A DNA stretch of 40,047 nt from Anaeromyxobacteraceae bacterium (GTDB taxonomy: Bacteria > Myxococcota > Myxococcia > Myxococcales > Anaeromyxobacteraceae): NCBI GenBank assembly GCA_035655915.1, contig DASRTO010000580.1, forward strand, positions 1 to 40,047. The letters run 5' to 3'. The notes beneath the pieces are model-generated. The model had not been told where the DNA came from, made no database searches, and saw only the letters and a list, made by a program, of their open reading frames with translations. Of this stretch, positions 17,648 through 37,928 are shown in pieces; within the stretch, counting starts at the first letter, position 1, and every line of letters begins with the position of its first letter. A program made the translations under genes and the position numbers.

Positions 17648-17715
17648 TTGGCGGGGGCGAGCAGGAACCGGCGTCGGGGGGACGTGGACACCGGGCCGCG
17701 GAGGGAGGGACCTCG

Positions 17716-17973: not shown

Positions 17974-17986
17974 GCCCGCGAAGGCC

Positions 17987-18517: not shown

Positions 18518-18553
18518 GGCCCGGTGCAGCGTTCCACCAGCGAAGGAGGGGTC

Positions 18554-18997: not shown

Positions 18998-19043
18998 GGA
19001 CCGCCGGACGCCAGGGGAGCGGCCCCGCCGGGCCGGGTCGCCC

Positions 19044-20774: not shown

Positions 20775-20776
20775 CC

Positions 20777-22102: not shown

Positions 22103-22788
22103 TTCACGACAAGAGAGAGTTCGCGATCGGGGCGGCGCTGACCGCGGTCTTCCTGGCCGGGCTGGGGGTCGTCTTCAGCCCCATCTTCGAGAACGGCCGG
22201 AACACCCTCGACTTCCTGGACGGCGTCTTCAACTCCATCTCCAAGGCCTCCGCCTACTACGTCCCGGCCTCGAGGGAGAAGGCGAGGCGGCTCGAGGGCC
22301 GGGCCGTCTCGGTCGCCATCAAGCTGAAGGACGCCGACCAGGCGTCCCTGGCGGCCCTGCTGCTCGGCTCGTCCGGCGCCGCCGTCGGGGTCGAGGGGAC
22401 ACGACTCGCGGTGTCGGGCGACCTCGGCCGGATCCTGGCCACGGCCCTGACGGACGCCGATGCCATGTTCGAGAACGACGGCGCCAGCGTCTCGGGACGG
22501 TACCGGGTCGAGGGGCGGCGAGTGCTCCACGCCTGGCACGCGGCGCTGGGGGAGGCCATGAAGGACCTGAACCGGCAGGGGATGTTCAGGGAGGCCGCCG
22601 TCGTCAGGGACTCCATCACCAAGGCCATCGAGCCGGCCTACAACTACTACGGGGTGAAGGCCGTCCCCATGAAGGACATGGGCGGGATCGCCCTGCTGGC
22701 CCTGATCGGCTACGTGGTCTATACGGTCTGGTACGGCTACGCGATCCTGTTCCTCTTCGAGGGCTGGGGCCTGAAGCTCGAGCATTGA
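22099..22788 (+). CDS. Hypothetical bitopic membrane protein (229 aa; N- and C-terminal TM helices flanking a soluble domain)
   Basis: The ATG at 22099 overlaps the TauE stop (ATGA). TM1 is FAIGAALTAVFLAGLGVVF and the C-terminal TM is IALLALIGYVVYTVWYGYAILFLF. No family recognised. Confidence 0.7.
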   Translation: MIHDKREFAIGAALTAVFLAGLGVVFSPIFENGRNTLDFLDGVFNSISKASAYYVPASREKARRLEGRAVSVAIKLKDADQASLAALLLGSSGAAVGVEGTRLAVSGDLGRILATALTDADAMFENDGASVSGRYRVEGRRVLHAWHAALGEAMKDLNRQGMFREAAVVRDSITKAIEPAYNYYGVKAVPMKDMGGIALLALIGYVVYTVWYGYAILFLFEGWGLKLEH

Positions 22789-22876
22789 CGGCGGCGCGGC
22801 CTTGGCCCGGGCCCCGCCAGGGCCGCGGCCGGTTTCCCAACGCGACGGGATCCTGGGAGAATTCCCGCCAGCGCCG

Positions 22877-25429
22877 ATGGCCTGGCTCCTGAAAGCCCTG
22901 TCGCAGCTGTTCCGGCCGGCGCCGAAGCCGGGCGCCGCGGAGCTCCAGGCCGCCTTCCGCTCCCGGTACCGGAGCTTCCGCTCCCTCATCACCGCCAACA
23001 ACGCCGCGCTCGAGACCATGGCCGAGATGGAGGCCGCCCTCCACTCGGGCAAGCCCTTCGGCATGGCCTTCGTCCGGGGACAGTGCACCGCCCTGGGCGT
23101 GAACGTGTACAAGATGATCCAGGGACTCCGGGAGCTCTCGGACGGCCGCTACCGGGACCTCCCGGAGCGCTTCGGGCTCGTCACCGGACGCATCGAGGCC
23201 ATCCTCTCCCGGCAGCCCGAGGCGGTCGGCTCGAGCTACGTGCTCCCCCTGGAGGAGATCGACCGCCGCGCCGTGGACCAGGTCGGTGCCAAGCTGGCCA
23301 ACCTGGGGGAGGTCCGGAACCGCCTCGGCCTGCGGGTCCCGGAGGGATTCGCCATCACCGCGGCCGCCTCGCGGCACTTCCTGGAGTCCACCCATCTCCA
23401 GGACGAGATCAACCGCCGGCTGAAGACGCTGGACCTGGACGATCTCGAGGCCCTCTTCCGGACCAGCACCGCCATCCAGAAGCTCATCGGGTCCGCTCCG
23501 CTCCCGGAGGACCTCGAGCGGGCGATCCAGGACCAGTATCGCCGCCTGGCCGGGAAGGCCGGCGGGGCGCCGCTGCTCTCGGTTCGCTCCAGCGCGCTCG
23601 GGGAGGACGGCCGGCAGGCCTCCTTCGCCGGGCAGTACCGGACCCGGCTGAACGTGAGCCCGGAGCTCCTCGCCCATGCCTACAGGGGAATCGTGGCCGG
23701 CAAGTATCGCAGCCAGGCCATCGCCTACCGCCAGGAGCGCGGCTACCGCCACCAGGACGTGCTCATGTGCGTGGGCTGCCTGGTGATGGTGGACGCCGTC
23801 GCCAGCGGGGTGGCCTTCTCCCGGCCGCCGGACCAGCCCCGCAGCCCCTGGATCCTGATCTTCGCGGCGCCCGGCCTCGGGACCCAGGTGGTGGAGGGGC
23901 GCTCCCCCAGCGACGTGTTCCGGATCTCGCGCGACCCGCCTCACCCAATCGCCTCCCGCCAGGTCGCGAGCGCTGGCGGCGACGCCTGCCTTCCCGACGA
24001 GCAGGCCCGCGAGCTGGCCGCCGCTGCCGCGCGGATCGAGGATCACTTCGGGGCGCCCCAGGACATCGAGTGGGCCCTCGACCAGGCCGGCCGGATCGTC
24101 ATCCTCCAGGCCAGGCCAATCGGGAGGGCGGCGCCGCAGCCGGAGAGCGCCCCGTCGCCCGACCCGGACCAGGCCGAGGGACCGCCGCCGCTGCTCGCGG
24201 GCGGCGTCACCGCTAGTCGAGGGGCAGCCTGCGGCCCGGTGTTCACGGTGCGCTCCGGGGTGGACGCGGTCCATTTCCCTAGGGGAGCGGTACTGGTGGT
24301 GGAAACCCCCTACCCGGATTGGACCGTGCTCCTCAACCGGGCCGCCGCGGTGCTCAGCGCCTCGGGCCAGATCGCCACGCACCTGGCCACGGTGGCCCGG
24401 GAGTTCGCCCTGCCCGCCATCTTCGACCTGCCCGGCCTCCTGGAGCAGGTGACCGACGGCCAGATCGTGACCGTGGATGCCACCTCGCGCCGGGTCTACC
24501 CGGGCCGCGTCGAGGCCCTGCTGCGCTCGCCCCCAGCCCGGCCTAACCTCATGGAGGGGAGCCCCATCCACCGCCTCCTCAAGGAGACGCTCGGCCTGGT
24601 CACGCCCCTCCACCTGACCGCCCCGGGCTCGCCGTTCTTCAGGGCCTCGTCGTGCCGGACCCTGCACGACATCACCCGCTTCTGCCACGAGAAGGCCGTG
24701 GCCGAGATGTTCGACTTCGGGAGGCGGCACGGGTTCAGCGACCGCGCGGCCAAGCGGTTGGTCGTCGCCGAGGCGCCCTCGCAGTGGTGGGTCATCGACC
24801 TGGACGACGGGTTCCGGGAGGGCCTCGACACCTCGAGCCCCTTCGTCCGGGTCGAGGACGTCGTCTCGGCGCCCATGCGCGCCATCTGGAGGGGCATGAC
24901 CGCCGTCCCCTGGCACGGACCGCCGCCGGTGAGCCTTCGCGGCTTCGGCGCCATCGTGGTCCAGTCGACCATGAACCCCCGCCTCGATCCGGCGGTGCGC
25001 TCGAGCCTGGCCGGCCGGAACTACTTCCTGGTCTCGCGGAGCTTCTGCAATCTGAGCGTCCGGCTGGGCTACCACTTCGCCCTGGCGGAGGCGAACCTGT
25101 CCGATCTACTCGCCGAGTCCTACGTCAACTTCCAGTTCAAGGGGGGCGCCGCCGACGAGCCCCGGCGCCTGGGACGAGTGCAGCTCCTCGCCGAGACCCT
25201 GCGGGCCATGGACTTCCGGGTCGAGATGACCGGCGACGCCCTCACCGCCCGCATCGAGAAGAAGCCGGTGCCCTACCTCCGGGAGCGGCTGGTGGTGCTG
25301 GGATACCTGCTCATCCACGCGCGGCAGATCGACATGGTCATGGACGACGAGGCCTTCGTGGAGCGGTACCTCGAGAAGATCCATGCCGACATCCGGATGA
25401 TCCGCGAGCGGCTCGCCGAGGAGGTGTGA
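22877..25429 (+). CDS. PEP-synthase-like protein: helical N-region, ATP-grasp (PPDK_N-like) domain, phosphohistidine swivel domain, uncharacterised C-terminal domain; paralog of 3399..6803
   Basis: The start is taken at ATG 22877 (MAWLLK..). Domain signatures are ..VGAKLANLGEV.., VRSSALGEDGRQASFAGQYRTRLNV and the His domain SGQIATHLATVAREFALPAIFDL. The C-terminal region (..CRTLHDITRFCHEKAVAEMFDFG..NFQFKGGAAD..) is collinear with the C-terminus of the 3399..6803 product. Confidence 0.85.
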   Translation: MAWLLKALSQLFRPAPKPGAAELQAAFRSRYRSFRSLITANNAALETMAEMEAALHSGKPFGMAFVRGQCTALGVNVYKMIQGLRELSDGRYRDLPERFGLVTGRIEAILSRQPEAVGSSYVLPLEEIDRRAVDQVGAKLANLGEVRNRLGLRVPEGFAITAAASRHFLESTHLQDEINRRLKTLDLDDLEALFRTSTAIQKLIGSAPLPEDLERAIQDQYRRLAGKAGGAPLLSVRSSALGEDGRQASFAGQYRTRLNVSPELLAHAYRGIVAGKYRSQAIAYRQERGYRHQDVLMCVGCLVMVDAVASGVAFSRPPDQPRSPWILIFAAPGLGTQVVEGRSPSDVFRISRDPPHPIASRQVASAGGDACLPDEQARELAAAAARIEDHFGAPQDIEWALDQAGRIVILQARPIGRAAPQPESAPSPDPDQAEGPPPLLAGGVTASRGAACGPVFTVRSGVDAVHFPRGAVLVVETPYPDWTVLLNRAAAVLSASGQIATHLATVAREFALPAIFDLPGLLEQVTDGQIVTVDATSRRVYPGRVEALLRSPPARPNLMEGSPIHRLLKETLGLVTPLHLTAPGSPFFRASSCRTLHDITRFCHEKAVAEMFDFGRRHGFSDRAAKRLVVAEAPSQWWVIDLDDGFREGLDTSSPFVRVEDVVSAPMRAIWRGMTAVPWHGPPPVSLRGFGAIVVQSTMNPRLDPAVRSSLAGRNYFLVSRSFCNLSVRLGYHFALAEANLSDLLAESYVNFQFKGGAADEPRRLGRVQLLAETLRAMDFRVEMTGDALTARIEKKPVPYLRERLVVLGYLLIHARQIDMVMDDEAFVERYLEKIHADIRMIRERLAEEV

Positions 25430-25432
25430 GAG

Positions 25433-25810
25433 ATGGAACGGGCGCTTCGCATCCTCCTGGTGGACGACGAGGAGGACTTCCTGGAGCCGACCTCGAAGCG
25501 GCTGCGGCGGCGCGGCTTCGAGGTGAAGACCGCCAGGCGCTGCCAGGAGGCCATGTCCGAGGTGGCAGCCGGCTGGCCCGAGGTGGTGGTCCTCGACGTG
25601 ATGCTCCCGGACACCGACGGCCTGGAGTGCCTGCGGCGGATCAGGCGAGCCTCGCCCCTTCTGCCGGTGGTCATCCTCAGCGCCCACGCCTCCATGCAGG
25701 CCGGGGTCCAGGGAATCGAGCTGGGCGCCAGCGACTACTGCCTGAAGCCCATCGAGCTCGACGAGCTCGTCGAGAAGATCCAGATCGCGCTCAAGGAGGC
25801 GGGGCGCTGA
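25433..25810 (+). CDS. Stand-alone response-regulator receiver protein
   Basis: 125 aa with canonical receiver residues: ILLVDDEED, VVLDVMLPDTDG, VVILSAHAS and DYCLKPI. It starts 4 nt after the upstream stop. Confidence 0.9.
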   Translation: MERALRILLVDDEEDFLEPTSKRLRRRGFEVKTARRCQEAMSEVAAGWPEVVVLDVMLPDTDGLECLRRIRRASPLLPVVILSAHASMQAGVQGIELGASDYCLKPIELDELVEKIQIALKEAGR

Positions 25811-25861: not shown

Positions 25862-26842
25862 TCAGTTCCACACCTCGAATCCCTTGAGGAGCGCCCTCAG
25901 GGAGGCGAAGAGGAGGAGGGCGATCACCATGCTGCGGATGGCTGCCGGCCTGGTCCGGGCCAGGATGCGGACCCCGGTGATCGACCCCAGCATGATGCCG
26001 ATGATGGACGGCACCACCAGGATGGGGAGGACCGCCCCGTTGTTCACGTAGATCCAGGCCGCCGAGGTGTCGGTGATGGAGAGGAGGAACTTGCTGGTGG
26101 CCACCGACACCTTGAGCGGCACCCCCATGAGCAGGTTCAGCACCGGGACGTTGGCCCATCCGGCGCCCAGGCCGAACATCCCGGCCATGACGCCGATGAC
26201 CACGAAGGCGGCCAGCCCCTGGGGCGTGCGGTGGATCTTCCAGTCGACGTCCCGGCCGGTCGAGGCCTCGTGGTAGATGCCGCTGATGCGCAGCGCGGTG
26301 GAGAGGCGGTCGGCCCGCGGCACGTCCGGGTACTCGGACTTCTTGGCCGTGAACATGATGGCGACGATGCCGAGGATGGTGAACCCGAGCGCGATCTGCA
26401 CCACCTTGGTCGGCAGGGCCAGCCCCACCATGGCCCCCACGATGGCGCAGGCGGAGGCGATGAGCGCCACCGGGATGGCGAGCCTGAGATCCGCCAGCCC
26501 CTTGCGCAGCAGGCCGGGGCCGGCGGCCAGCGCCCCGGCCAGCGCCACCAGCAGGCCGGCACCCCTGACGAAGTCGAGGTGGAACGGGAAGAACCCGCCG
26601 ATGATGGGGACGAAGAGGACGCCGCCGCCCACCCCGCCCAGCACCGCCACGATCCCCAGGAGGAACGTCACCACCAGGAGGATGGCCGGCCAGGCCCACC
26701 AGGGCATGGCCGAGCCGTGGGCCATCCCGGCCGCGGCCGGCACGGCGGACGGGTCGGCCCAAGCCAGGGCGATGGCCGCCGGCAGCCAGGGGGCGGACGC
26801 CGCCAGAACCAGCGCCACGGCGATCGTCGCGCGTCGGGTCAT
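25862..26842 (-). CDS. TauE/SafE-family anion permease (third copy)
   Basis: 326 aa with the signatures GIVAVLGGVGGGVLFVPIIGG and GVMAGMFGLGAGWANVPVLN. Confidence 0.85.
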   Translation of the reverse strand: MTRRATIAVALVLAASAPWLPAAIALAWADPSAVPAAAGMAHGSAMPWWAWPAILLVVTFLLGIVAVLGGVGGGVLFVPIIGGFFPFHLDFVRGAGLLVALAGALAAGPGLLRKGLADLRLAIPVALIASACAIVGAMVGLALPTKVVQIALGFTILGIVAIMFTAKKSEYPDVPRADRLSTALRISGIYHEASTGRDVDWKIHRTPQGLAAFVVIGVMAGMFGLGAGWANVPVLNLLMGVPLKVSVATSKFLLSITDTSAAWIYVNNGAVLPILVVPSIIGIMLGSITGVRILARTRPAAIRSMVIALLLFASLRALLKGFEVWN

Positions 26843-26854
26843 GGGGCCGGCGCC

Positions 26855-27331
26855 TCAGTGACCGCCGACGGACAGGACCCCGGACGCGGCCAGCCCCAGC
26901 ACCAGCACCTCGGCCACCGTGAGCCAGGCGTAGACCCGGTCGCTCTTCCGGAAGAAGATGGGGCTGATGGCCAGGTAGCAGGCGACGGTCACGCCGGAGA
27001 GGAAGGCGATGCCGACGAAGTTGAGGAAGTCGCCGCGGTGGAGCATGAAGACCCAGTTCCAGCCCGGCTCGATCCCGGTGGCGGCCAGGTACTGCTTGAC
27101 GGGAAGGGACCAGTACCGGGGGAGCTCGCCGAGCGGCACGTGAGGCCTGACCAGGCCCAGCAGGTAGGCCGCGGCGGAGAGGAGGAGCAGCAGGAGCCCG
27201 GTCCTCATCCCGCTGTCGAGCCACCGCGCGTAGGCGAGCTGCTCCTCCGCCAGCCCCTCCCCGGCGGCGGCGATCGCCGCCGGGGGGACGGCGGCGACGA
27301 CGGCGCGCCCGGTCACCTCGATCTGGCTCAC
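26855..27331 (-). CDS. Small polytopic membrane protein upstream of TauE (possibly DUF1634-like)
   Basis: 158 aa with three or four hydrophobic segments, ending 12 nt from the TauE start. The family assignment is a weak recollection that DUF1634 proteins pair with TauE. Confidence 0.6.
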   Translation of the reverse strand: MSQIEVTGRAVVAAVPPAAIAAAGEGLAEEQLAYARWLDSGMRTGLLLLLLSAAAYLLGLVRPHVPLGELPRYWSLPVKQYLAATGIEPGWNWVFMLHRGDFLNFVGIAFLSGVTVACYLAISPIFFRKSDRVYAWLTVAEVLVLGLAASGVLSVGGH

Positions 27332-27683
27332 CCTTCCTCTCCTCTCCGCCCGCCCACGGGGGCGCGCTCCTCACACGCGCGACAGGCGGAGCCGCCGCGC
27401 TCCCGCTCGGGTGCGACCGTTGGTGCGACGCGCACGGCCCACCGTGGCACGGGCCCGCCGGACGGGTCAAAGCGAGAATTTCAATGCCGCCGATAAACGA
27501 GATCAAGGGTCGCGCCGATCGCCGGCGACCGTCGAACGGCTCGCAAAGCCGCCAGCGTCAGCAGCGAGGCGGGCCAGCCAGCCGGGCCCTCGCCGTCCGT
27601 CCCGCGCCGGCGACCCCTCGCCGCGCACCGGCTCCGGTGAGGGAAACGGGGCGCCTCTCCTCGGGGCGCCACCTCCGCCCCAG

Positions 27684-27701
27684 ACTTGACGCGCATCAAG
27701 T
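27684..27701. promoter_or_regulatory. Inverted repeat ACTTGA-N6-TCAAGT in the long divergent intergenic region
   Basis: Read directly in the sequence. It lies within the ~600-nt non-coding gap (27332-27932) between the TauE/membrane operon and the yeeE-like gene. The function is unknown. Confidence 0.3.
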
Positions 27702-27932
27702 ACGGGAGCCGGGCGCCAGGTGCGCCCGCCCGCGCGGTGGGGCGCGAGAGGCTCGATCGCATCAATCCGCTTTATCGAAGCATTCAAGGTCTGTGAGTTG
27801 ACACTCCGCCCTGGGGTACGCACAACATGCGCCCACGATCATGCACGACGAGACCAGCGTCGACTCGCAGATCCGGGCGGCCAGCGGGCCCGGGCCCATT
27901 CCAGGGCACCTTAGGCGGTCGCGGAAGGACGG

Positions 27933-29405
27933 GTGAACATGGACGCAGCCCAGGCGACCCTCGCCGTCCCGAAGGAGCGCTTCGGTACCCACGAGCGCTG
28001 GGCGTTGGCGGTGACGGGGTTCTTCATCGTCGTCAGCGCCTCCGTCTATGCCGCCAACGAGCTCTACGTGTATCTGGTGGCGTATCTCTGGTTCGGGTTC
28101 ATCTATGGGATGTGCCTGCAGGGGGGCAGGTTCTGCTTCTCCTCGGCGTTCCGGGACCTCTTCGCCGTCGGCGTGCCCAGGATGGTCGTTGGGATCGTGA
28201 TCGCGTGCGTCCTCTTCGGGGTCACCTCCGCCTTCGTCACCGCGACCGGCATGAGCGCCTTCCACCCGGCGACCTGGGGCATCCACAACGTCATCGCCGG
28301 CGCCGTCTTTGGCGTGGGGATGGTCGTCGCCGGCGGTTGCGCCTCGAGCTCTCTCTACAAGACCGGAGAGGGCAACATGGCGTCGGCGCTGGTCATCCTC
28401 TCCATCAGCGTGACGCAGGCCGTCTTCGTGGCCATACGCGGGTGGAGCAACAAGCTCGTCCCGCAATCCTGGCACCAGGCGGCGGTGGCAAGAGGATTGC
28501 CCGACGCCATCAACGCCGGCGACGGCTGGATGGACCAGTACCTCGCGGGCTACGTGTGGAACCAGCCCAAGGGCACGTATGCGGACTTGCTCGGCGCCCC
28601 CAACGAGTCCTTCCTCGGGGCCTTCGTCGGCAACTTCCTGCTGGGCGTGGTCGTCCCCGCGGCGCTGCTGCTCGGCCTCGTCTACCTGTTCTGGGTCAGG
28701 AAAGGCTTCCTGAAGAAGTGGAAGCGCGATGGGAAGCCGGGGGGCTTGCGGGCCGACCTGGCCGGCTTCTGGGGGATGGTGGCGTCGTCGAAGAGGACCG
28801 CCGTCGCCGGCCTGATCCTGGGAATCGCCGCCGGCCTGCACATGTACGTCATGATGGGGATCCGGCAGAAGTTCGGAATCGAGAATGCCGCGCAGATCCT
28901 CAGGGCCATCGGGCAGGATTTCGGCATCTCGGTCAAGAACACGGTGTTCGACCCCGGCTACTGGTACGTGACCACCCAGGAGGCGCAGTGGGTGGGCTGG
29001 GTGTTCCAGAAGCTGGGCTGGAACAACATGGACAACATCTTCTTCGGGCTCAACAACGGCATCCCCAATCCGCTGTGGAACCCGGCGGACTGGATGTCGG
29101 TGGCCCTGATCGGCGGGGCCTGCGTCATGGCTCTCGTCCACAACGAGTTCAAGTTCAAGGTTCCCTCCCTCGAGGTCGCGACGTGGGCGATCATCGGTGG
29201 CTTCTTCATGGGGGTGGGCTCGCGGCTCGGGCTGGGCTGCAACGTGGGGGCGTTCTTCGTACGCACCGCCAACGGGGACTTCTCGGGATGGCTGTTCGGG
29301 CTCGGGATGGTAGGAGGCGCTTACCTGGGCGTGAAGTTCTTCAGTTGGTGGACGGAGCGGAAGATGGCGAAGGAGATGGCGGCGGCGCCCGATCTCCAAC
29401 TCTAG
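27933..29405 (+). CDS. YeeE/YedE-family sulfur (thiosulfate)/selenium-compound transporter
   Basis: 490 aa and polytopic. It has the three family-typical Cys-loop motifs GGRFCFSSAFRDLF, AGGCASSSLYKTGEGN and LGLGCNVGAFF. Confidence 0.85.
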   Translation: MNMDAAQATLAVPKERFGTHERWALAVTGFFIVVSASVYAANELYVYLVAYLWFGFIYGMCLQGGRFCFSSAFRDLFAVGVPRMVVGIVIACVLFGVTSAFVTATGMSAFHPATWGIHNVIAGAVFGVGMVVAGGCASSSLYKTGEGNMASALVILSISVTQAVFVAIRGWSNKLVPQSWHQAAVARGLPDAINAGDGWMDQYLAGYVWNQPKGTYADLLGAPNESFLGAFVGNFLLGVVVPAALLLGLVYLFWVRKGFLKKWKRDGKPGGLRADLAGFWGMVASSKRTAVAGLILGIAAGLHMYVMMGIRQKFGIENAAQILRAIGQDFGISVKNTVFDPGYWYVTTQEAQWVGWVFQKLGWNNMDNIFFGLNNGIPNPLWNPADWMSVALIGGACVMALVHNEFKFKVPSLEVATWAIIGGFFMGVGSRLGLGCNVGAFFVRTANGDFSGWLFGLGMVGGAYLGVKFFSWWTERKMAKEMAAAPDLQL

Positions 29406-29422
29406 AGGCAGGAGGATCAACC

Positions 29423-29674
29423 GTGGCGATGAAGTTCGAGAAGATCGGCGAAGGCGCCTATTCCCTGGACGTGAAGGGCTACGTTTGTCCGCATCCGCAG
29501 CTCTACACCAAGAGCGCCCTGTCGAAGATAAGGCCCGGCGACACGCTGCGGCTGCTCTTCGACAACCCCTCCTCCGGGGAGTCCATCGCCTCGATGTGCG
29601 ACAAGAACGGCGACGAGATCCTTGAGCAGATCACCGACGCCGGATCGTTCCGGTGGCTCATCAAGAAGTCCTGA
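29423..29674 (+). CDS. TusA/YedF/YeeD-like sulfurtransferase (SirA fold)
   Basis: A GTG at 29423 lies 6 nt after AGGAGGA (alternative ATG at 29429). It has the CPxP active-site motif in LDVKGYVCPHPQL and sits immediately downstream of yeeE-like, as in yeeE-yeeD pairs. Confidence 0.85.
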   Translation: MAMKFEKIGEGAYSLDVKGYVCPHPQLYTKSALSKIRPGDTLRLLFDNPSSGESIASMCDKNGDEILEQITDAGSFRWLIKKS

Positions 29675-29711
29675 GCGCCCCGGGCGCCGTGGCGAGGAGG
29701 ACCGGGCCGTC

Positions 29712-30068
29712 ATGAAGACCAGCCTTTGGATCGTCGTGGTGATGATAGCGGGGTTCGTCGGGTTCCTGATCGGCTACAGCGTTTCGTCGCACACCGGGAC
29801 GCGCGGCCTCGAGACCATTGTGGCCACTTCGCAGAAGCCGGCCGCGCCCGCCGCCGCGCCGGCGGGGGGCTACGCCGAGAAGCCCACCGCCCCCACGAGC
29901 GGCTACGGCGAGAAGCCGGCCGCGCCGACCCCGGCGGCCACGCCTCAGTCGAAGCCGTCGGCCCAGGCGTCCTCGGCCGGCGCGACGCCCGAGAAACCCG
30001 CCCCACCGAAGCAGGCCGCCCCGCGCGCGGCCCCCAGCAAGGCCGGCAGCTCCACGGCCGGATACTAG
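29712..30068 (+). CDS. Membrane-anchored Pro/Ala-rich low-complexity protein with a tandem GY(A/G)EKPxAP repeat
   Basis: ATG 29712 follows GAGGAGGA. It has an N-terminal TM (LWIVVVMIAGFVGFLIGY) and a 33-nt tandem repeat at 29868-29933. The protein ends in ..STAGY. Confidence 0.6.
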   Translation: MKTSLWIVVVMIAGFVGFLIGYSVSSHTGTRGLETIVATSQKPAAPAAAPAGGYAEKPTAPTSGYGEKPAAPTPAATPQSKPSAQASSAGATPEKPAPPKQAAPRAAPSKAGSSTAGY

Positions 30069-30150
30069 TGTCGCTACCCATGCGGCGGCTCTAAAGACGC
30101 GCCGCCAGCGGGCGAGTCCGGCTCGTTGCCGCGTTGCGCCGAGGAGGCGA

Positions 30151-31092
30151 ATGCCCATGAGACCAAGACTCGCAGTGCTGCTCCTCCTGGCCGCTCCGCT
30201 CGCCGCAGCCCAGGCGCCGGCGGCCAAGAAGGCCAAGACCATCGACCAGCTGGCGGCCATGTTCGACTCCGCCAGGTGCAAGCAGTGCCACGGGGAAATC
30301 TACGCGCAGTGGGAGAAGTCGCACCACGCCCGCCCCTTCATGGGCGTGGCCGGGGGGCTGATGCTCATCCCGGTGGTGCGCTCCAGCGCCTTCCAGGTGA
30401 AGAGCCCCAAGGAGGCGACCCTCAAGACCTTCCCCTGCTTCAAGTGCCACCTCCCCCAGGCGGTCACCCACGCCGAGGACTCGGTGGCGGTGGAGCTGGC
30501 CGAGGCCCTCTTCACCGCCTCGGACAAGGACAAGCCTGACAAGGACAAGGCGGCCGCCAAGGCCAAGGTGGCCAGGCTTCAGATCACCTGCATCGTCTGC
30601 CACAACGAGAAGGCCATCGCCCACAAGCTGGTCCTCGGTCCGCCGCAGGCCGACGTCATCTACGGCTCCCGCGACCTCTCGCCCCACGGGGACCCCCCGG
30701 ACCGCGTCTTCAAGTCGGTGAAGAAGAGCGCCATCCTCAACCAGCCCGTCTTCTGCGGGCAGTGCCACGGGACCGGCCCGAACTTCGAGTTCGACTACCC
30801 CATCCAGTGCGCCACCCTCTACGGGAGCTACCAGCACAACTACCTCTCGAAGGGCGGCTTCCAGACCTGCCAGGAGTGCCACATGCGCAAGGTGGGCAAG
30901 GTGGCCGACCACACCTTCCCGCCGAACTGGGACGACAAGGAGTCCACCTCGAAGATGCTGGCGGACAACATCTCGCTGGACGTCCAGACCCTGGGCTACC
31001 AGTGGCTGCGCAAGGCTGGGGCCCTCACCCCCATGATCGTGGTGAACACCAAGATCGGGAACCGGGCCGGCCACCGCATCCCGGATGGCTGA
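30151..31092 (+). CDS. Secreted multihaem c-type cytochrome (5 CXXCH), reading frame interrupted by TGA at 31090-31092
   Basis: The signal peptide is MPMRPRLAVLLLLAAPLAAAQA. The five haem motifs are CKQCH, CFKCH, CIVCH, CGQCH and CQECH. The frame ends ..NRAGHRIPDG-TGA and stays open in the same frame to 31413. The start could be 30151 or 30157. Confidence 0.85.
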   Translation: MPMRPRLAVLLLLAAPLAAAQAPAAKKAKTIDQLAAMFDSARCKQCHGEIYAQWEKSHHARPFMGVAGGLMLIPVVRSSAFQVKSPKEATLKTFPCFKCHLPQAVTHAEDSVAVELAEALFTASDKDKPDKDKAAAKAKVARLQITCIVCHNEKAIAHKLVLGPPQADVIYGSRDLSPHGDPPDRVFKSVKKSAILNQPVFCGQCHGTGPNFEFDYPIQCATLYGSYQHNYLSKGGFQTCQECHMRKVGKVADHTFPPNWDDKESTSKMLADNISLDVQTLGYQWLRKAGALTPMIVVNTKIGNRAGHRIPDG

Positions 31093-31107
31093 CCGTCCCA
31101 CAACCGA

Positions 31108-31127
31108 GCGGTCCTGGAAGTGACCGC
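31108..31127 (+). other. Hairpin GCGGTC-CUGGAAGU-GACCGC located 15 nt after the in-frame TGA (SECIS-like candidate)
   Basis: A perfect 6-bp stem with an 8-nt loop containing GG, read directly in the sequence. The spacing from UGA to the loop falls within the range generally described for bacterial SECIS elements. Confidence 0.35.
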
Positions 31128-31413
31128 CAAGAGCGCCGAGGGCAAGGATCTCTTCAGGGACGAGCGCCACTACCACCCGCAGGCCACCAGCTGCCTCAAC
31201 GAGAAGATGGTCTACGGCGCCCAGAACAAGTCGTCCTACGTCCGCGACACCAGCCTGCAGCCCTTCGAGTCGAAGGACGAGACCTTCGAGATCAAGCTGC
31301 CGGAAGGGGTGCGCGCCGCCGATGTCACCGTGGAGCTGGTCTACGAGGTGCACAATCCCGAGAACAGGGTTCCCATCCACAAGGTCACTCGGCGCGTCTC
31401 GCTGGACCGCTAG
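31120..31413 (+). CDS. Same-frame continuation of the cytochrome (C-terminal beta-rich domain); either a read-through/Sec extension or a separate ORF from GTG 31120
   Basis: It is in frame with 30151..31092. The sequence ..PSHNRAVLEVTAKSAEGKDLF..ETFEIKLPEGVRAADVTVELVYEV.. looks like the domain that normally follows the GHxxPxG motif in this cytochrome family. That identification is from recollection and has not been searched. Confidence 0.55.
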   Translation: MTAKSAEGKDLFRDERHYHPQATSCLNEKMVYGAQNKSSYVRDTSLQPFESKDETFEIKLPEGVRAADVTVELVYEVHNPENRVPIHKVTRRVSLDR

Positions 31414-31418
31414 GGCGA

Positions 31419-32882
31419 ATGAGGTGCGCGCTGGTCATCCCGTCGTGGGCCCCGGAGGACCTCTTCCCCGCGAAGACGGCCGGGTCCCAGCTCAACTACT
31501 GGCAACCCCTGGGCACGCTCTACGTGGCCGCCAGCCTCCAGCGGGCCGGCCACGAGGTCCGCTTCCTCGACGGCGCCTTCCTGTCACGCCAAGCGATCCT
31601 GGACCAGCTCTCCGCCTTCCGGCCGGAGTGGGTCGGCATCTACGCCACGGCCTTCGGCTGGCCGCGCGCCGAGCGCACCGCCGCCGACGTCACCGAGCGC
31701 CTCCCGGAGTCCTACCTGTGCGCCGGAGGCCCCTACCCCATCGCCGAGGGCGAGCGGTGTCTCGACTACGCCCGCGCCTTCGACGCCGCCGTCACCGGCG
31801 AGGGAGAGCAGACGGCGGTGGAGATGGTGGAGCGGCTCGAGCGCCGCGAGTCGCTGGAGGGCGTCTCCGGACTGGTCTACCGGCAGGGGGACGAGGTGAA
31901 GGCGAATCCGCCCCGCCCCCTGCTGCGGAACCTGGACCAGCTCCCCTTCCCCGACCGGCGCCTGCTGGGCGACCCCGACCGCTACCTGCCGCCCCCGGCC
32001 ACCTGGCGCCGCAAGCCGGTGGCGGTGGTGCTGACCTCCCGCGGGTGCAACCGCCACTGCATCTTCTGCTTCCAGATGGACAAGAGCCGCCGCAGCGGCA
32101 TCCGCTACCGCAGCGTGGAGAACGTGCTCGAGGAGATCGAGCTGTGCCTGCGGCAGGGGTTCCGCGAGATCAAGTTCATCGACGACACCTTCGCCGAGGA
32201 CCGCGCCCGCGCCATGCGCCTGGCCGGCGAGATCCGGCGGCGGCGGCTCGACTTCACCTGGTTCGCGTCCGCCTGCGCCAACCAGGTTGACCCGGAGATG
32301 CTGCGCGCCTTCAAGGAGGCGGGGTGCTGGGCCATCCTCTTCGGCGTCGAGAGCGGCGTGCAGCGGAACCTCAACACGCTGCGCAAGGGGATCACCCTGG
32401 ACCAGGCGAGGCGGGCGGTGGCCTGGGCGCGGGAGGCGGGACTCTCGGTGCAGACCACCTTCATGTTCGGGATCCCGGGCGAGACCTTCGAGGACGGGCT
32501 GCGGACGATCGACTTCGCCTGCGAGCTCGACGCCGACTGGGCCAGCTTCCACGCCATCGTCCCCTTTCCGGGTACGGTGCTCCACGATCGCGCCGCCGGG
32601 CTCGGCACCCTCTCCGAGGACCTGCAGGACTTCACCTACCAGGGAGCGGCCTTCGTCCCCTCCACCATGACCCGGGACCAGATCGTCGAGCTCAGGCAGC
32701 GCGCCTACCGCGCCTTCTACAGCCGGCCCAGGTTCCTGCTCCGCAAGCTCGCCGGGCTGGGGAACCGGCACCACCGCGCCGCGGCGCTGCGGAGCGCCCG
32801 CTCCTTCTTCTGGCTCTGGGCCGGGAAGGACGTCTTCCGCCCCGCTTCCGCCGGCCACCGGCCGGACCCGAGGGAGGGCTGA
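31419..32882 (+). CDS. B12-binding-domain radical SAM enzyme (class B rSAM)
   Basis: The N-terminal Rossmann-like B12 region reads MRCALVIPSW..YVAASLQRAGHEVRFLDG... The radical SAM cluster motif is CNRHCIFC, followed by ..FGVESG.. and a TIM-barrel-like remainder. Confidence 0.85.
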   Translation: MRCALVIPSWAPEDLFPAKTAGSQLNYWQPLGTLYVAASLQRAGHEVRFLDGAFLSRQAILDQLSAFRPEWVGIYATAFGWPRAERTAADVTERLPESYLCAGGPYPIAEGERCLDYARAFDAAVTGEGEQTAVEMVERLERRESLEGVSGLVYRQGDEVKANPPRPLLRNLDQLPFPDRRLLGDPDRYLPPPATWRRKPVAVVLTSRGCNRHCIFCFQMDKSRRSGIRYRSVENVLEEIELCLRQGFREIKFIDDTFAEDRARAMRLAGEIRRRRLDFTWFASACANQVDPEMLRAFKEAGCWAILFGVESGVQRNLNTLRKGITLDQARRAVAWAREAGLSVQTTFMFGIPGETFEDGLRTIDFACELDADWASFHAIVPFPGTVLHDRAAGLGTLSEDLQDFTYQGAAFVPSTMTRDQIVELRQRAYRAFYSRPRFLLRKLAGLGNRHHRAAALRSARSFFWLWAGKDVFRPASAGHRPDPREG

Positions 32883-32887
32883 AGGCC

Positions 32888-33967
32888 GTGACCGGTGCCG
32901 CGGCGCGGATCGAGCGGGCCGTCCCGCCCCCGGGCTCGCCCCCGGAGCGGTTCATCTCGGTGGTGGTGCCCAACCGCAACGGGGCGGCCACCATCGGACG
33001 GTGTCTCGAGGCCGCCCTGGCCTCGGACTACCGGCGCTTCGAGGTGGTGGTGGTGGACGACGGCTCCGAGGACGCCTCGGTGGAGATCATCCGCGGCTTC
33101 CCCTGCCGCCTGGTCCGCCTGCCGCGGCGCGCCGGCGTCTCGCGGGCGCGCAACGCCGGGGCCCGGGCGGCCTCGGGGGACCTGCTCCTCTTCATCGACT
33201 CCGACTGCCTGGTGCGGCGCGACACCCTGGCGGTGGCCAACGCCTCCTACGGCGAGCGCCGCGACCGCGTCCTGGGTGGCACCTACACGCCGATCCCGCA
33301 CGACCGCGACTTCTTCAGCGCCTTCCAGTCGGCCTTCATCCACCACTTCGAGACCAAGCGGCGCGAACCCGACTACGTGGCGGCCCACGCCATGGTCATC
33401 GACGCCGTGCTGTTCCGGCGCTCGGGCGGATTCGTCGAGGACTCCTTCATCGGGGTGGCCGCCAGCGTGGAGGACGTCGAGTTCAGCCACCGCCTGCGCC
33501 GCCAGGGCTGCCGGCTGGCCATGGACCCGCATCTCCGGGTGACGCACGTCTTCCGCTTCTCGCTGCGCCGGTCGCTCTCGAACGCCGTCAGGAAGGCCCG
33601 CACCTGGACCCGGTACTCCCTCGCCAACCGCGACCTCCTCCGGGACTCGGGCGCCGCCTCGCTGGAGCTCAAGGCCAACGTGCTGTGCGCCCTGCTGGCG
33701 GCCGGCCTGGCCGTCGCCGGCCTGGCCCGGGGAGCCGCCTGGCCGCTCGCGGCCCTCCCGCCCCTCCTGGCCCTCGACCTCCTCGTGAACCGGCGGCTGG
33801 TCGCCGCCTGGCTCGGGGCCGGCGGCCCGGGCTTCGCGGCCCTGGCGGTCCTCTACTACCTGACCCTCTACGCGGCGGCGGTGGCGGTCGGGGCGGCCCT
33901 GGGCACCGCGCAGTACCTGTGGAGCATCCGCCTGCTGGGGCGATACCGGCCATGCACACCCCGCTAG
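32888..33967 (+). CDS. Family 2 glycosyltransferase with a C-terminal membrane region
   Basis: The start is GTG. The GT-A signatures are ISVVVPNRNGAATI, VVVVDDGSED and FIDSDC (DxD). The C-terminus has three or four TM segments. Confidence 0.8.
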   Translation: MTGAAARIERAVPPPGSPPERFISVVVPNRNGAATIGRCLEAALASDYRRFEVVVVDDGSEDASVEIIRGFPCRLVRLPRRAGVSRARNAGARAASGDLLLFIDSDCLVRRDTLAVANASYGERRDRVLGGTYTPIPHDRDFFSAFQSAFIHHFETKRREPDYVAAHAMVIDAVLFRRSGGFVEDSFIGVAASVEDVEFSHRLRRQGCRLAMDPHLRVTHVFRFSLRRSLSNAVRKARTWTRYSLANRDLLRDSGAASLELKANVLCALLAAGLAVAGLARGAAWPLAALPPLLALDLLVNRRLVAAWLGAGGPGFAALAVLYYLTLYAAAVAVGAALGTAQYLWSIRLLGRYRPCTPR

Positions 33968-35082
33968 CGCACGCGCGGTCCCTCTTCTGGAAGAGGCGAC
34001 CCGTCCACCTGACCCTCTTCGTCACCGGGAGCTGCAACCTCCGCTGCCCGTTCTGCTTCCACCGGCGGGCCCCGGAGGCGCCGGACCCCGCCCCCGAGCT
34101 CTCCCTGGACGAGATCGGCCGGGTGGCCCGGTCGATGGACTCCCTGCTGTGGCTCCTGTTCTCGGGTGGCGAGCCGTTCCTGCGCCGCGACCTGGTCGAG
34201 GTGAGCGCCCTCTTCCACCAGGTGAACCGGCCGGCCTTCCTCACCTACCCGACCAACGGCTGGTTTCCGGAGGTGATCGCCGATCGGACCGAGGAGATCC
34301 TGAGGAGCTGCCCGGAGAGCGTGGTGGTGGTGAAGGTCTCCCTGGACGGCGTGGGCGCCGACCACGACGCGCTGCGGCGAGCCCCGGGCGGCTTCGAGCG
34401 GGTGGTGCGCACCCTGGAGCGGCTGGCCTCGCTGGCCGGGCGTCACCGGCGGCTCGAGGTCGGGGTGAACACCCTCTTCTGCCGGGAGAACCAGGAGCGC
34501 ATGGAGGCCATCGTCGACTTCGTGGCCGGGCTCGACGGGGTGCGGTCCCACACGCTCACCGTGGCCCGCCCGGTCCCGGGCGTCGCCACCGCCGCGGGCG
34601 TCGACCCCGCGCTCTACCGGAGGGCTGGCCTGCACCTCGAGGCCCGCTGGCGCGCCCGCCGGCACGGCTCCCACCGCTTCGCCGGGGCGGGCCTCAAGTC
34701 GGCGCAGGATCGGCTGCAGCGGCGGCTCGTCCACCGCACGCTGCTGGAGCGGCGGAGGGTCGTCCCCTGCTACGCCGGGCGCCTCGACCTGGTGCTCTCC
34801 GAGAGCGGGGACCTCTACCCGTGCGAGGGGCGCTGGGACGCCTCCTTCGGCAACGTGCGCCAGGCCGGCTACGACGTGCCGGGGATGCTCCGCTCCGCCC
34901 GGGCCCGGCGCGTCTTCGAGGCGCTGGAGAACGGGGAATGCCACTGCACCAACGAGTGCAACTTCCTCGTGAACATCCTCTTCAACCCCCGGATGCACCC
35001 CGGGCTCCTGCGCCACTGCGCGGGGCTGCCCCCGGCGTGGCCCGGGAGGGACGAGGCCCCGCGCCAGGCCGGCGCCGGCTGA
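33952..35082 (+). CDS. Radical SAM enzyme with a SPASM/twitch-like Cys-rich C-terminal domain
   Basis: ATG 33952 overlaps the GT2 end by 16 nt. The cluster motif is CNLRCPFC, followed by SGGEPFLR. The C-terminal cysteines lie in ..VVPCYAGRLDLVLSESGDLYPCE..GECHCTNEC... Confidence 0.8.
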   Translation: MHTPLAHARSLFWKRRPVHLTLFVTGSCNLRCPFCFHRRAPEAPDPAPELSLDEIGRVARSMDSLLWLLFSGGEPFLRRDLVEVSALFHQVNRPAFLTYPTNGWFPEVIADRTEEILRSCPESVVVVKVSLDGVGADHDALRRAPGGFERVVRTLERLASLAGRHRRLEVGVNTLFCRENQERMEAIVDFVAGLDGVRSHTLTVARPVPGVATAAGVDPALYRRAGLHLEARWRARRHGSHRFAGAGLKSAQDRLQRRLVHRTLLERRRVVPCYAGRLDLVLSESGDLYPCEGRWDASFGNVRQAGYDVPGMLRSARARRVFEALENGECHCTNECNFLVNILFNPRMHPGLLRHCAGLPPAWPGRDEAPRQAGAG

Positions 35083-35125
35083 AGGTGGACCAGGTGAACG
35101 TCGATCGAGCCAGGAGGTGGATCCG

Positions 35126-35440
35126 ATGAGCGATACGCTGGGAATCTGCGTGGCGACCAGGAACTCGATGCAGCACGTGGTCGGCCTGGCCAAGGCGGCC
35201 AGGGCCGCGGGCAAGGAGGTCAAGGTCTTCTTCACCGGAGAGGGGGTACACGCCACCCAGGACCCTCGCTTCGCCGAGCTGCTCGAGCTGGGGGTGGGCA
35301 AGGTGGCGGTGTGCGAGGTCAGCTACATCGCCAACGGGTTCAAGGGGAAGCCGCTGCCCGGGATGCGCGACAAGGACTTCGTCACCCAGGGGCGAAACGC
35401 CGAGATGGTCGAGGACTGCGGGCGCTACGTCGTCCTCTAG
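35126..35440 (+). CDS. DsrE/TusD-like sulfur-relay protein
   Basis: 104 aa, with AGGAGG 8 nt upstream. It shows the DsrE-family pattern (..LGICVATRNS..VKVFFTGEGV..) and a Cys in VAVCEVS (CxxS) at the expected active-site position. Confidence 0.7.
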   Translation: MSDTLGICVATRNSMQHVVGLAKAARAAGKEVKVFFTGEGVHATQDPRFAELLELGVGKVAVCEVSYIANGFKGKPLPGMRDKDFVTQGRNAEMVEDCGRYVVL

Positions 35441-35989: not shown

Positions 35990-36106
35990 CCTCCCGGCGG
36001 GGGACGAGCCCCCGCCCTACGGACCCCGCGGAGCCCCGGAGCGGGGGGCGAGCCCCGGCCCTACAGACCCCGGAGCCTCGGGGCGGGGGACGATCCCCCC
36101 CTCCGA
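35990..36106. repeat. Three REP-like palindromic elements (one perfect, two degenerate) related to 34..117
   Basis: The perfect core GGCGGGGGACGAGCCCCCGCC at 35996-36016 is followed by CTAC, identical to 92-116. Degenerate copies lie near 36038-36064 and 36080-36106. The perfect copy abuts the TAG stop (36017-36019) of the minus-strand gene, and the degenerate copies lie inside that gene's 3' end. Confidence 0.65.
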
Positions 36107-37885
36107 CGCCGGAGTCCGGGCGCGGTAGACCGCGACCAGCGGCCGGTCGCGGAACACGCCGTCGTCGGCCGCGAACGTCCGCGCCGGGCGCAAGCCCCGC
36201 AGACGGTCCGTCACCTCCGGCGGCAGGGGCGCGTCCAGGTCGTAGGCCAGGAGCGCCACCGCCGCGTCGCCTCCGGCGTCCCCCTGGTACCAGTCCGGGT
36301 TCTGGTACTCCCAGGTGAAGCGCAACGGGGAGGTCCGCGCCCGCTCCCTCGCTTCGGCGGGCACTCCTGGGTAGGCGTAGCGAAGGGTCTTGCGCGTGTA
36401 GAGGTCGAGCACGGGGACCCACACCGCCGGGTTCACGTCCGCCTCCGGGCGCGGCAGCGTGACGACCAGGGCCTGCGCCTCGCCGATCGAGTCCAGGTAC
36501 GCGCCGGCCGCCTTGAGGTTCCCGGCGCTGGTCCCCCGCAGGAACGGGAGGTACCCGTAGAGCGCCACCGCGAGCGAGGTGGCCACCGCGCAGCCGGCGG
36601 CGAGGCGGCGCAGCTCCGGGCTCCGGATCCGCTGGAGCCCGTAGGCCGCCATGAGCGCCACCATGGGGAAGGCCGGGAGGAGGTAGCGGATGCGCTGCAC
36701 CCGCAGCAGGAGCAGGAGCGCCACCGGCCAGAGGACCACGGCGTATCTCGGGTCCCGCCTCTCGACGGCCACCCAGGCCGAGAGCAGCGCCGCGCCGGCG
36801 ACGAAGGGATGGATCTGGAAGAGGAAGGTCGAGGCGAGGCTCTCCCCCCAGCGCCGGAGCCCGGGGGCCTGGTAGGACAGCAGCAGGGCGAGCTGCTCCC
36901 GGTGGATGTCCAGGCGCGGCAGCGCGGCGGAGAGGACCAGGGTCGCCGAAAGCAGCGCCACCGCGAGGCCGGTCCGCAGCGGCCGGGGTCCGTCCCGTCG
37001 GACCACCCCGATCACCGGCAGCACGGTGAGGAGCAGCCAGGCGGAGTACTTGCTGAAGCAGGCCAGGGCCACCGCCAGCGACGCCAGGAGGATCCGCCCC
37101 GGGCCGCCCCGCCGGAAGGCCTCCTCGACCGCCACCACCGCCAGCAGGAGGAAGAACATGGTGGGGACGTCCACCAGCATGCTGGGCACCTGGGCGAGCA
37201 GGTAGGGCATGGCCAGCAGCAGGGCGCCGGCGGTGAACCCCACCTCCTCGTCCCACAGCGCCTTGCCGAGGCGACAGGTCAGGGCCACGGCGCCGCCGAA
37301 GAAGAGGGTGCCCAGCGCCTGCACCACCAGCCGCGACTCCCCGAGGAGCCTGAAGAAGAGGCCGTGCAGGAGCGGGACCAGCGGCAGGTCGGTCCAGGCC
37401 GGGACGGCCCGGCCCCAGTCCGCCAGGAAGGAGCCGAGGCCGTGCAATTCCAGATATTTGGCCTGGGCGAAGTAGCGGGACGCGTCCACGATGACCTCGG
37501 GCGCGCGCCAGAACGGGACCACCGCCCCGCACGCGGCGGCGAAGAGCAGCGCCGCGGGCCGCCGCGGCAGCGGGAGCCTCGCCAGGAAGACGGCCGCGGC
37601 GACGCCCGCCGCCGAGAGGGCGTAGAGCCGAAGCGGATCGGCCTCGGCGAAGACCCAGCGCCAGCTGGTGAGGCGGTTGTCGTCCCAGGCGCGAAGGACG
37701 TGGAGGGCGGCGACCACTCCCACGGCGGTCAGCGAAACCGCCAGCCGCTCCAACGCCCCGGCCGCGGCCGCGCCGGCAGGTGCCTCCACGCGCGCTGGGG
37801 CTTGCGCCTCGGGCCAGGGCTCCACGGGGTTGGACGGCGCCGGCCGAGGTCGGCCGCGCCGCCGCTCCTCGGGACACGATAGCAC
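36017..37885 (-). CDS. GT-C fold membrane glycosyltransferase (GT39 / ArnT / PMT_2-like)
   Basis: 622 aa with more than 10 TM segments. The pattern ..DASRYFAQAKYL..PLVPLLHGLFFRLLGES..ALGTLFFGGAVALTCRLG.. is typical of ArnT/PMT-like enzymes. The GTG start at 37885 is uncertain. The C-terminal ~30 aa are encoded by REP-like repeats. Confidence 0.75.
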   Translation of the reverse strand: MLSCPEERRRGRPRPAPSNPVEPWPEAQAPARVEAPAGAAAAGALERLAVSLTAVGVVAALHVLRAWDDNRLTSWRWVFAEADPLRLYALSAAGVAAAVFLARLPLPRRPAALLFAAACGAVVPFWRAPEVIVDASRYFAQAKYLELHGLGSFLADWGRAVPAWTDLPLVPLLHGLFFRLLGESRLVVQALGTLFFGGAVALTCRLGKALWDEEVGFTAGALLLAMPYLLAQVPSMLVDVPTMFFLLLAVVAVEEAFRRGGPGRILLASLAVALACFSKYSAWLLLTVLPVIGVVRRDGPRPLRTGLAVALLSATLVLSAALPRLDIHREQLALLLSYQAPGLRRWGESLASTFLFQIHPFVAGAALLSAWVAVERRDPRYAVVLWPVALLLLLRVQRIRYLLPAFPMVALMAAYGLQRIRSPELRRLAAGCAVATSLAVALYGYLPFLRGTSAGNLKAAGAYLDSIGEAQALVVTLPRPEADVNPAVWVPVLDLYTRKTLRYAYPGVPAEARERARTSPLRFTWEYQNPDWYQGDAGGDAAVALLAYDLDAPLPPEVTDRLRGLRPARTFAADDGVFRDRPLVAVYRARTPASEGGIVPRPEAPGSVGPGLAPRSGAPRGP

Positions 37886-37928
37886 GCGGCGGAGCCCGGG
37901 CGGGATCGCCGGCCGCGACGCCCGGAGC

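Follow-up and report, generated by a model that had tools for sequence, protein, structure and literature searches.

Selenocysteine (Sec) is encoded by UGA in MccSep, a five-heme cytochrome c of Geobacter that is the closest described relative of the gene considered here, which lies on the forward strand at 30157–31413 of a stretch of DNA from an Anaeromyxobacteraceae bacterium (GenBank assembly GCA_035655915.1, contig DASRTO010000580.1). This stretch, hereafter called the window, is one entire metagenome contig of 40,047 bp with a G+C content of 71.7%. The interpretation of 30157–31413 as a Sec-type gene of the MccSep/ExtKL family, decoded via an mRNA element known as a selenocysteine insertion sequence (SECIS), is given a probability of roughly 0.92.

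The family itself is already known. GSU2937 and GSU2936, taken together, were flagged in 2007 as a selenoprotein candidate by a stop-codon read-through screen (PMC1914089), the name ExtKL was given within the extHIJKLMNOPQS cluster (PMC5877670), a curated NCBIfam model (NF040886) is listed in a review from 2026 on the selenoproteins of prokaryotes (PMC13188914), and both structure and enzymology were reported in the same year by Mihara et al. (Sci Adv 2026; PMC13510729). In the latter work, Geobacter MccSep is described as a periplasmic homotetramer with five hemes and 0.96 Se per subunit and a cleaved signal peptide of 25 amino acids, and its Sec-containing peptide, VEMTNHAGHSIPDGUPTPNR, was identified by mass spectrometry (PMC13510729). 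The structure consists of an N-terminal heme cap and a C-terminal immunoglobulin (Ig)-like beta-sandwich, whose Sec loop extends to heme 2 with its His and Cys ligands, the other four hemes being bis-His ligated (PMC13510729). The enzyme is a polysulfide reductase with weaker activity on selenite, and U325 as well as C239 are indispensable, both in vitro and for S0 respiration in vivo (PMC13510729). Moreover, 637 MccSep homologues were reported, Cys-type ones among them, together with SECIS-like stem-loops (PMC13510729).

Gene Structure and Family Membership

The following features were assigned to the cytochrome gene; coordinates are those of the window, and all features are on the forward strand.

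30141–30147, forward: putative Shine-Dalgarno-like GAGGAGG read from the sequence, with spacings of 9 nt to ATG 30157 and 3 nt to ATG 30151
30157–31413, forward: predicted pentaheme selenoprotein of the MccSep/ExtKL family in a single coding sequence, 418 amino acids including Sec, with a TAG stop at 31411–31413
30157–30216, forward: probable Sec-type (secretory) signal peptide MRPRLAVLLLLAAPLAAAQA, from inspection of the sequence
30277–30291, forward: heme-binding motif 1, CKQCH
30436–30450, forward: heme-binding motif 2, CFKCH, which by alignment to MccSep would hold the active-site heme (role from PMC13510729)
30589–30603, forward: heme-binding motif 3, CIVCH
30754–30768, forward: heme-binding motif 4, CGQCH
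30868–30882, forward: heme-binding motif 5, CQECH
30808–30810, forward: Cys220 codon, in QCATLY
31090–31092, forward: UGA, predicted Sec codon, in the motif GHRIPDG-U-PSHNR; residue 312, or 314 when counted from ATG 30151
31093–31410, forward: predicted C-terminal beta-rich (Ig-like) domain following Sec, including Lys360 (31228–31230)

Translation from the alternative start, ATG 30151, gives a product of 420 amino acids; ATG 30157 has the better spacing from GAGGAGG and is also the start used by a public gene call (P0001, 311 amino acids). Residue numbers such as Arg309 refer to the 420-residue translation, so that Cys220, for example, is residue 218 of the 418-residue product. Because the probable signal peptide lacks a lipobox Cys, a soluble periplasmic protein is expected. 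Around the UGA, the frame reads ...IGNRAGHRIPDG-TGA(31090–31092)-PSHNRAVLEVTAKSAEGKDLF... and then runs on through 106 sense codons before it reaches the TAG at 31411–31413. An earlier reading of the sequence without database searches, here termed the sequence-only reading, had described this arrangement correctly, including the five CxxCH motifs, the in-frame TGA and the 107 codons that follow it (the stop included). Gene callers split the coding sequence into two products, P0001 of 311 and P0121 of 97 amino acids.

Family membership was established with the 420-residue translation, in which the TGA was read as Cys. The NCBIfam model NF040886, 'multiheme c-type cytochrome (seleno)protein ExtKL', matches it with 491 bits (curated cutoff, 250; E 2.3e-147) and does so from end to end, residues 12–418 of 420 corresponding to profile positions 15–422 of 423, while Pfam yields weak, generic cytochrome signals. 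An Anaeromyxobacteraceae homologue (P0006) likewise bears the NCBI name 'multiheme c-type cytochrome ExtKL'. The best sequence matches in the PDB are the entries of Geobacter sulfurreducens MccSep (9wt8–9wtc), with 41.7% identity over 348 aligned residues; the alignment to 9wt9 has an E-value of 7e-75 (about 1e-74 for 9wt8/9wt9) and extends to residue 385, that is, into the C-terminal domain. In this alignment, the TGA codon falls exactly on residue 325 of MccSep, which is Sec (Ala in the U325A crystal form), His100 falls on His122, the proximal ligand of heme 2, and Lys360 falls on Lys372. Cys220 aligns with Cys239, the distal ligand of heme 2, and would by homology ligate the corresponding heme here.

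The sequence-only reading's suggestion of a beta-rich domain behind the GHxxPxG motif agrees with the published MccSep structure, in which the C-terminal Ig-like beta-sandwich bears the Sec. An AlphaFold2 model of the 106-residue tail predicts four long strands at a predicted local distance difference test score (pLDDT) of 73; a Foldseek search of this model against the PDB gave no significant match in a library that ends at 2026-04-08, apparently before the 9wt8 series.

Conservation of the UGA Codon

A genome scan with one genome per species returned 319 relatives, and the best 80 loci were analyzed, which together with the window make up the 81 sequences compared below. These 80 loci span four or more phyla, from Anaeromyxobacteraceae (87% identity) through Nitrospirota/Thermodesulfovibrionales, Desulfobulbales/Desulfurivibrio and Rokubacteria to Desulfomonile, down to 44% identity, and all of them match through to residue 417–420. 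The codon that follows GHR[IVL]PDG is TGA in all 81 sequences and is never TAA, TAG, TGC or TGT; each sequence has five CxxCH motifs upstream of the TGA and 104–112 in-frame codons downstream. Similarly, the 120 best protein matches (58–100% identity) are all 250–323 amino acids long and end exactly at ...GHRIPDG, and a word-index search with the C-terminal 106 residues returned, among the 120 matches listed, solely split 'hypothetical proteins' of 96–118 amino acids.

The codons behind the TGA bear the mark of selection on a protein. The ratio of nonsynonymous to synonymous substitution rates (dN/dS) of the 106 post-TGA codons is 0.08–0.17 against six relatives, from which it follows that these codons are translated. 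Unsplit homologues of the Cys type came to light only when the C-terminal domain was used in an exhaustive profile search; for instance, P0254 (421 amino acids) and P0273 (455 amino acids), with 40% and 38% identity to the window protein, carry five CxxCH motifs and a Cys at the TGA column (GHRFPDG-C-PS and GHPLPDG-C-PT, respectively), and Cys is present at this column in P0280 too. Purifying selection after the TGA, the unsplit Cys-type homologues and the full-length NF040886 match together uphold the view, first put forward from the sequence, that the TGA interrupts one protein rather than separating two genes. The comparison with homologues that had been proposed as a check thus returned TGA in every close relative (81/81) and Cys in the unsplit distant ones, i.e., a Sec/Cys pair; given the alignment with the proven Sec325 as well, the proposal that the TGA is a Sec codon is well supported.

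Invariant in the 81 sequences are the five CxxCH motifs, Cys220 (which is invariant in the Cys-type homologues as well), the Sec column, Lys360 and exactly four other histidines (H59, H158, H254 and H308). The four extra histidines plus Cys220 fit the published pattern of four bis-His hemes and one His/Cys heme.

The Downstream Hairpin as a Predicted SECIS Element

Two RNA features were assigned downstream of the UGA.

31108–31127, forward: predicted SECIS apical stem-loop, GCGGUC-CUGGAAGU-GACCGC, with arms at 31108–31113 and 31122–31127
31092–31098 pairing with 31137–31143, forward: possible lower SECIS helix, weak in the window, where four of its seven pairs form

The 6-bp hairpin, located 15 nt past the TGA, is present as the sequence-only reading had claimed. 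The 67-nt segments around the TGA can be aligned across the family without a gap, and all six apical pairs are kept in 81 of 81 sequences. Changes on both sides, from G-C to A-U, occur in five sequences at one pair and in a single sequence at a second; a third pair varies among U-G, U-A and C-G, and two extra pairs closing a GGAA tetraloop occur in 31 of the 76 distinct sequences. All sequences share U32 and G33 in the loop, and nearly all share G34. None of the 500 column shuffles or of the slid controls reaches the observed covariation score or the observed percentage of paired cells. The strongest evidence for a SECIS is nonetheless the synonymous constraint: across the 301 codon columns in which one amino acid predominates, the third-position entropy has a mean of 1.28 bits and only seven columns are essentially invariant, of which five (codons +6, +7, +8, +10 and +11 after Sec) are those of the hairpin arms. 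Pairing in all sequences, covariation and synonymous constraint thus bear out the idea that the hairpin serves the TGA as a SECIS.

The 28-nt hairpin alone folds with −10.4 kcal/mol (z −2.15). In a TGC-type homologue (L082), which is a single-sequence control, there is no comparable hairpin in register, and the local fold reaches −3.2 versus −10.4 kcal/mol here. The lower helix, if it forms, is paired in 72% of cells family-wide and has changes on both sides at two pairs, located at third-codon positions; the folds of two family members (L005 and L031) show this helix, which is dispensable for the fold of the window itself. At the G+C content of the window, any 25 nt are expected to contain about 0.15 perfect 6-bp hairpins; from the window sequence alone, the hairpin is therefore no more than chance would give, but from the family comparison it is more than chance.

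The predicted SECIS loop starts 21–23 nt past the UGA, and this start falls inside the distance range of 16–37 nt in the bSECISearch model. The element resembles the fdhF-type SECIS of Escherichia coli in having an in-frame UGA, a stem-loop within a few codons inside the coding sequence, and conserved G/U bases in the apical loop. It differs from the fdhF type in its sequence and its loop, both of them family-specific, the loop being YUGGNNGU or else a GGAA tetraloop with U-G as the closing pair; binding of SelB to it is a prediction.

Proposed Mechanism

The UGA at 31090–31092 is most likely decoded as Sec: SelB, recruited by the mRNA stem-loop at 31108–31127, would bring Sec-tRNA(Sec), and the ribosome would then proceed through the 106 codons of the C-terminal beta-sandwich domain. 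Judging from homology to the Geobacter protein, the Sec would lie on the DG-U-P loop beside heme 2, whose distal ligand would be Cys220 and not His. The selenolate would attack polysulfide or, less well, selenite, after which electrons passing down the heme chain would reduce the Se-S(n)-S(Cys) adduct and free sulfide. From the Geobacter work we infer Sec insertion in this organism, the periplasmic location and the polysulfide reductase activity. Confidence that the protein is specifically a polysulfide reductase is lower, because that assignment comes from homology alone; the activity is considered fairly probable. The Anaeromyxobacteraceae-like organism may accordingly respire or detoxify polysulfide or selenite.

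Weighing of Alternative Explanations

Several observations weigh against Sec decoding of the gene or against an MccSep-like function of its product. On the 40,047-bp contig there are no selA, selB, selC or selD genes among the annotated open reading frames and no tRNA; that Sec is decoded in this organism is argued by analogy. The folding of 31085–31150 (also of 31090–31150), which the sequence-only reading had proposed as a check, did not favor the hairpin, since this 61–66 nt context folds no better than its shuffles (z +0.37 and +1.38); as the window is G+C-rich and the context fold is at shuffle level, thermodynamics alone cannot support a SECIS. A search with Rfam, covering the whole window at gathering thresholds and 31040–31200 at permissive E-values, gave chance-level matches and no SECIS model. 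Regarding the protein, Arg83 of Geobacter MccSep, which is functionally important there, falls in a 2-residue deletion of the clade to which the window protein belongs; the paper does not call this residue family-invariant (PMC13510729). Finally, the Geobacter ext neighbors (the rhodanese ExtH, the porin ExtI, further cytochromes and Rieske/bc-type genes; cluster per PMC5877670) are absent from the window, so that the substrate and the electron donor may differ from those in Geobacter.

Three other explanations of the TGA were weighed against its decoding as Sec. Automatic callers end the gene at the TGA and treat what follows as a distinct hypothetical protein of 97 residues, as would be expected if the gene were a pseudogene with a nonsense mutation or if 31090–31092 held a sequencing or assembly error; the identical TGA recurs, however, in 80 independent assemblies from several phyla, with no TAA, TAG or sense codon in its place, the downstream frame is intact throughout under a dN/dS of 0.08–0.17, and the position is that of the proven Geobacter Sec. 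The TGA in 81 of 81 sequences and the purifying selection behind it rule this explanation out, and it retains practically no probability. The same gene calls could also be taken literally, as a 311-residue pentaheme cytochrome (ExtK) that ends at the UGA and a 97-residue ExtL that starts at GTG 31120, where a start codon is indeed present and where callers begin the second open reading frame. A truncated product is even likely as a by-product, since recoding by UGA/SECIS is never fully efficient (PMC4513850). Yet the ten codons that separate the TGA from this GTG (PSHNRAVLEV) rank with the best-conserved of the protein, the internal start picked by callers differs between homologues, and the unsplit Cys-type homologues are single chains; moreover, an antibody to the C-terminal part of Geobacter MccSep detects a single band of 49 kDa, and the crystal contains one chain with the Sec at the domain junction (PMC13510729). 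On these grounds a restart at GTG 31120 was rejected, and two separate polypeptides are very improbable.

The remaining alternative accepts one full-length chain but supposes that the UGA is read through by a near-cognate tRNA(Trp) or tRNA(Cys), so that the protein would be free of selenium and no Sec machinery would be involved. In its favor, neither a sel gene nor a tRNA is present on the contig. Leaky read-through, however, needs neither a strictly conserved hairpin nor invariant loop bases nor synonymous constraint, all of which are found here, and the hairpin is absent from the TGC-type homologue; a hairpin under selection argues for SelB over simple read-through. In addition, replacement of U325 by Cys severely impairs the Geobacter enzyme (PMC13510729), and the closest named lineage decodes Sec, with 11 selenoproteins in Anaeromyxobacter dehalogenans, a member of the family to which the closest named relative of the window belongs (PMC1794560). 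Such Sec-independent read-through is accordingly given a very slim chance. With Sec decoding retained, the interpretation offered by the sequence-only reading is correct, although it amounts to a rediscovery, because the family had already been catalogued, modelled and characterized.

Relation to Known Systems

Geobacter sulfurreducens PCA MccSep and the window protein have in common a signal peptide (a probable one in the window protein), the five CxxCH motifs, the G-H-x-I-P-D-G-U-P motif, the His/Cys pair of heme 2, the equivalent of Lys372, a C-terminal beta domain that carries Sec (a predicted one in the window protein), and a UGA followed by a stem-loop. At 41.7% identity, the window protein belongs to another clade, with sequences from Nitrospirota, Desulfurivibrio and Desulfomonile. 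Besides the missing Arg83, two differences were noted: Arg309 (31075–31077, in GHRIPDGU) is invariant in 81 of 81 sequences and is Ser in Geobacter, and Cys348 (31192–31194, in HYHPQATxC), which is Ala in Geobacter, is invariant in 26 of 26 close homologues, those of one alignment (A3), but not family-wide. Given the changes at these three positions, the clade could conceivably differ from the Geobacter enzyme in its substrate or its anion-binding arrangement.

Among other cytochromes, TsdA and SoxAX are comparable in that a Cys-ligated c-type heme is the site of S-S bond chemistry (PMC13510729); they differ in having no Sec, another heme count and an oxidative direction, and no sequence relationship to them was detected here. 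The pentaheme cytochrome c552 of Thermochromatium tepidum (5ze8), comparable in length with 435 amino acids, gave a weak match (E 3.3e-7, residues 20–105) and, at rank 23, a weak Foldseek match to the C-terminal model; it has no match to the Sec/Cys motif, and the sequence similarity is limited to the first heme region.

For annotation, the value of the locus lies in the fact that the gene is split into a 311-residue 'cytochrome' and a 97-residue 'hypothetical protein' in hundreds of metagenome records, and that the signature of TGA, hairpin and synonymous constraint cleanly identifies such split MccSep/ExtKL genes. The records retrieved from JGI, ENA, Logan and NCBI (P0001–P0240; L081, 10001–11260) consist of a 'mono/diheme cytochrome c' of about 300 amino acids and a 'hypothetical protein' of about 97.

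Genomic Neighborhood

The cytochrome gene is preceded by three genes on the same strand and is followed by a group of genes for radical SAM enzymes and glycosyltransferases.

27933–29405, forward: YeeE/YedE-family permease, 490 amino acids (Pfam PF04143)
29441–29674, forward: TusA-like protein (Pfam PF01206)
29712–30068, forward: membrane-anchored Pro/Ala-rich protein of 118 amino acids, with no Pfam or NCBIfam match
31419–32882, forward: B12-binding radical SAM enzyme, HpnJ/BchE-like but below cutoff, starting 5 nt past the cytochrome stop
32900–33967, forward: GT2 glycosyltransferase
33985–35082, forward: second radical SAM enzyme
36017–38245, reverse: PMT_2 membrane glycosyltransferase

The permease, the TusA-like protein, the 118-residue protein and the cytochrome are encoded with short gaps and may be co-transcribed. 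A scan of 27300–35400 for promoters and terminators, together with a search for the sigma-54 consensus, gave chance-level matches, and the operon boundaries could therefore not be set. The sequence-only reading had located the YeeE/YedE- and TusA-like genes properly, but the link to selenium that it drew from them was not supported. The permease scores 123.9 against a cutoff of 350 for the selenium YedE model NF033796 and 55.2 against 200 for TIGR04112, and the TusA-like protein scores 44.4 against 79 and 27.4 against 110 for the YedF models NF008242 and TIGR03527, respectively; the two proteins are likewise below cutoff for the thiosulfate models TsuA/TsuB. Given these scores, and since the two genes adjoin the cytochrome gene only in the four closest relatives, they are no evidence for selenium use. 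One may speculate that a role in sulfur trafficking is at least as plausible, given the known substrate of MccSep.

The order YeeE-TusA-small protein-mccSep-radical SAM-GT2-radical SAM recurs in L081 (88% identity), L001 and L003, and in L002 as far as its contig end. In the other 76 loci the neighbors are variable and mostly housekeeping genes; clustering of the 1,738 open reading frames around the 81 loci revealed no universal partner, the commonest being KsgA, PdxA, an ABC transporter and sensor kinases. The linkage to YeeE, TusA and TauE transporters (the latter are given below) offers a modest clue to the traffic of sulfur species around the enzyme. It is conceivable, albeit unlikely, that YeeE, TusA, the Pro/Ala-rich protein and MccSep form a lineage-specific operon, next to two TauE exporters, that couples periplasmic reduction of polysulfide or selenite to transport of sulfur or selenium across the inner membrane. 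If this were true, the operon would be a candidate for the additional sulfur-transfer components of MccSep, which according to the 2026 paper are still to be identified (PMC13510729).

As to the individual neighbors, the YeeE permease is about 90–100 amino acids longer than the span of the Sulf_transp profile (residues 65–465 correspond to profile positions 2–310). Some YeeE/YedE proteins are themselves selenoproteins with a GUxSG motif, as stated in a 2026 review; the window permease has Cys instead. In the 118-residue protein, a transmembrane helix at the N-terminus is accompanied by a Pro/Ala-rich tail with repeated GY[AG]EKP[TA]AP-like motifs, and the protein is kept between the TusA and cytochrome genes in L001, L002, L003 and L081. 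The trio of radical SAM, GT2 and radical SAM genes is syntenic in L002, L003 and L081, and its homologues are found less than 6 kb from mccSep in six Nitrospirota loci (L018, L069, L028, L005, L046 and L051), sometimes on the opposite strand.

Farther upstream, the window contains the following genes.

2286–6803: larger Alph_Pro_TM + PPDK_N + PEP-utilizers protein
7231–9234: SulP/STAS sulfate-permease-family gene, adjoining regulatory genes
20339–22102, forward: TauE/SafE permease
22775–25429: PPDK_N + PEP-utilizers protein, between the two TauE/SafE permeases
25430–25810: response regulator, between the two TauE/SafE permeases
25862–26854, reverse: TauE/SafE permease

The arrangement of TauE, PPDK-like and Alph_Pro_TM genes is also present in L081. 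Two further in-frame TGA codons in the window, flanked on either side by coding-like sequence, were considered and dismissed as recoding candidates, each being an ordinary same-frame gene junction: that at 25427–25429 (forward) leads from the PPDK-like protein to the response regulator, and that at 11862–11864 (reverse) from a histidine kinase to a sigma-54 activator. The regulatory region at 7231–20774 holds sigma-54 activators (10479–11861 and 15973–17544), three histidine kinases, two of them with dCache domains, and several stand-alone receivers. A YeiH-family protein is encoded elsewhere in the window.

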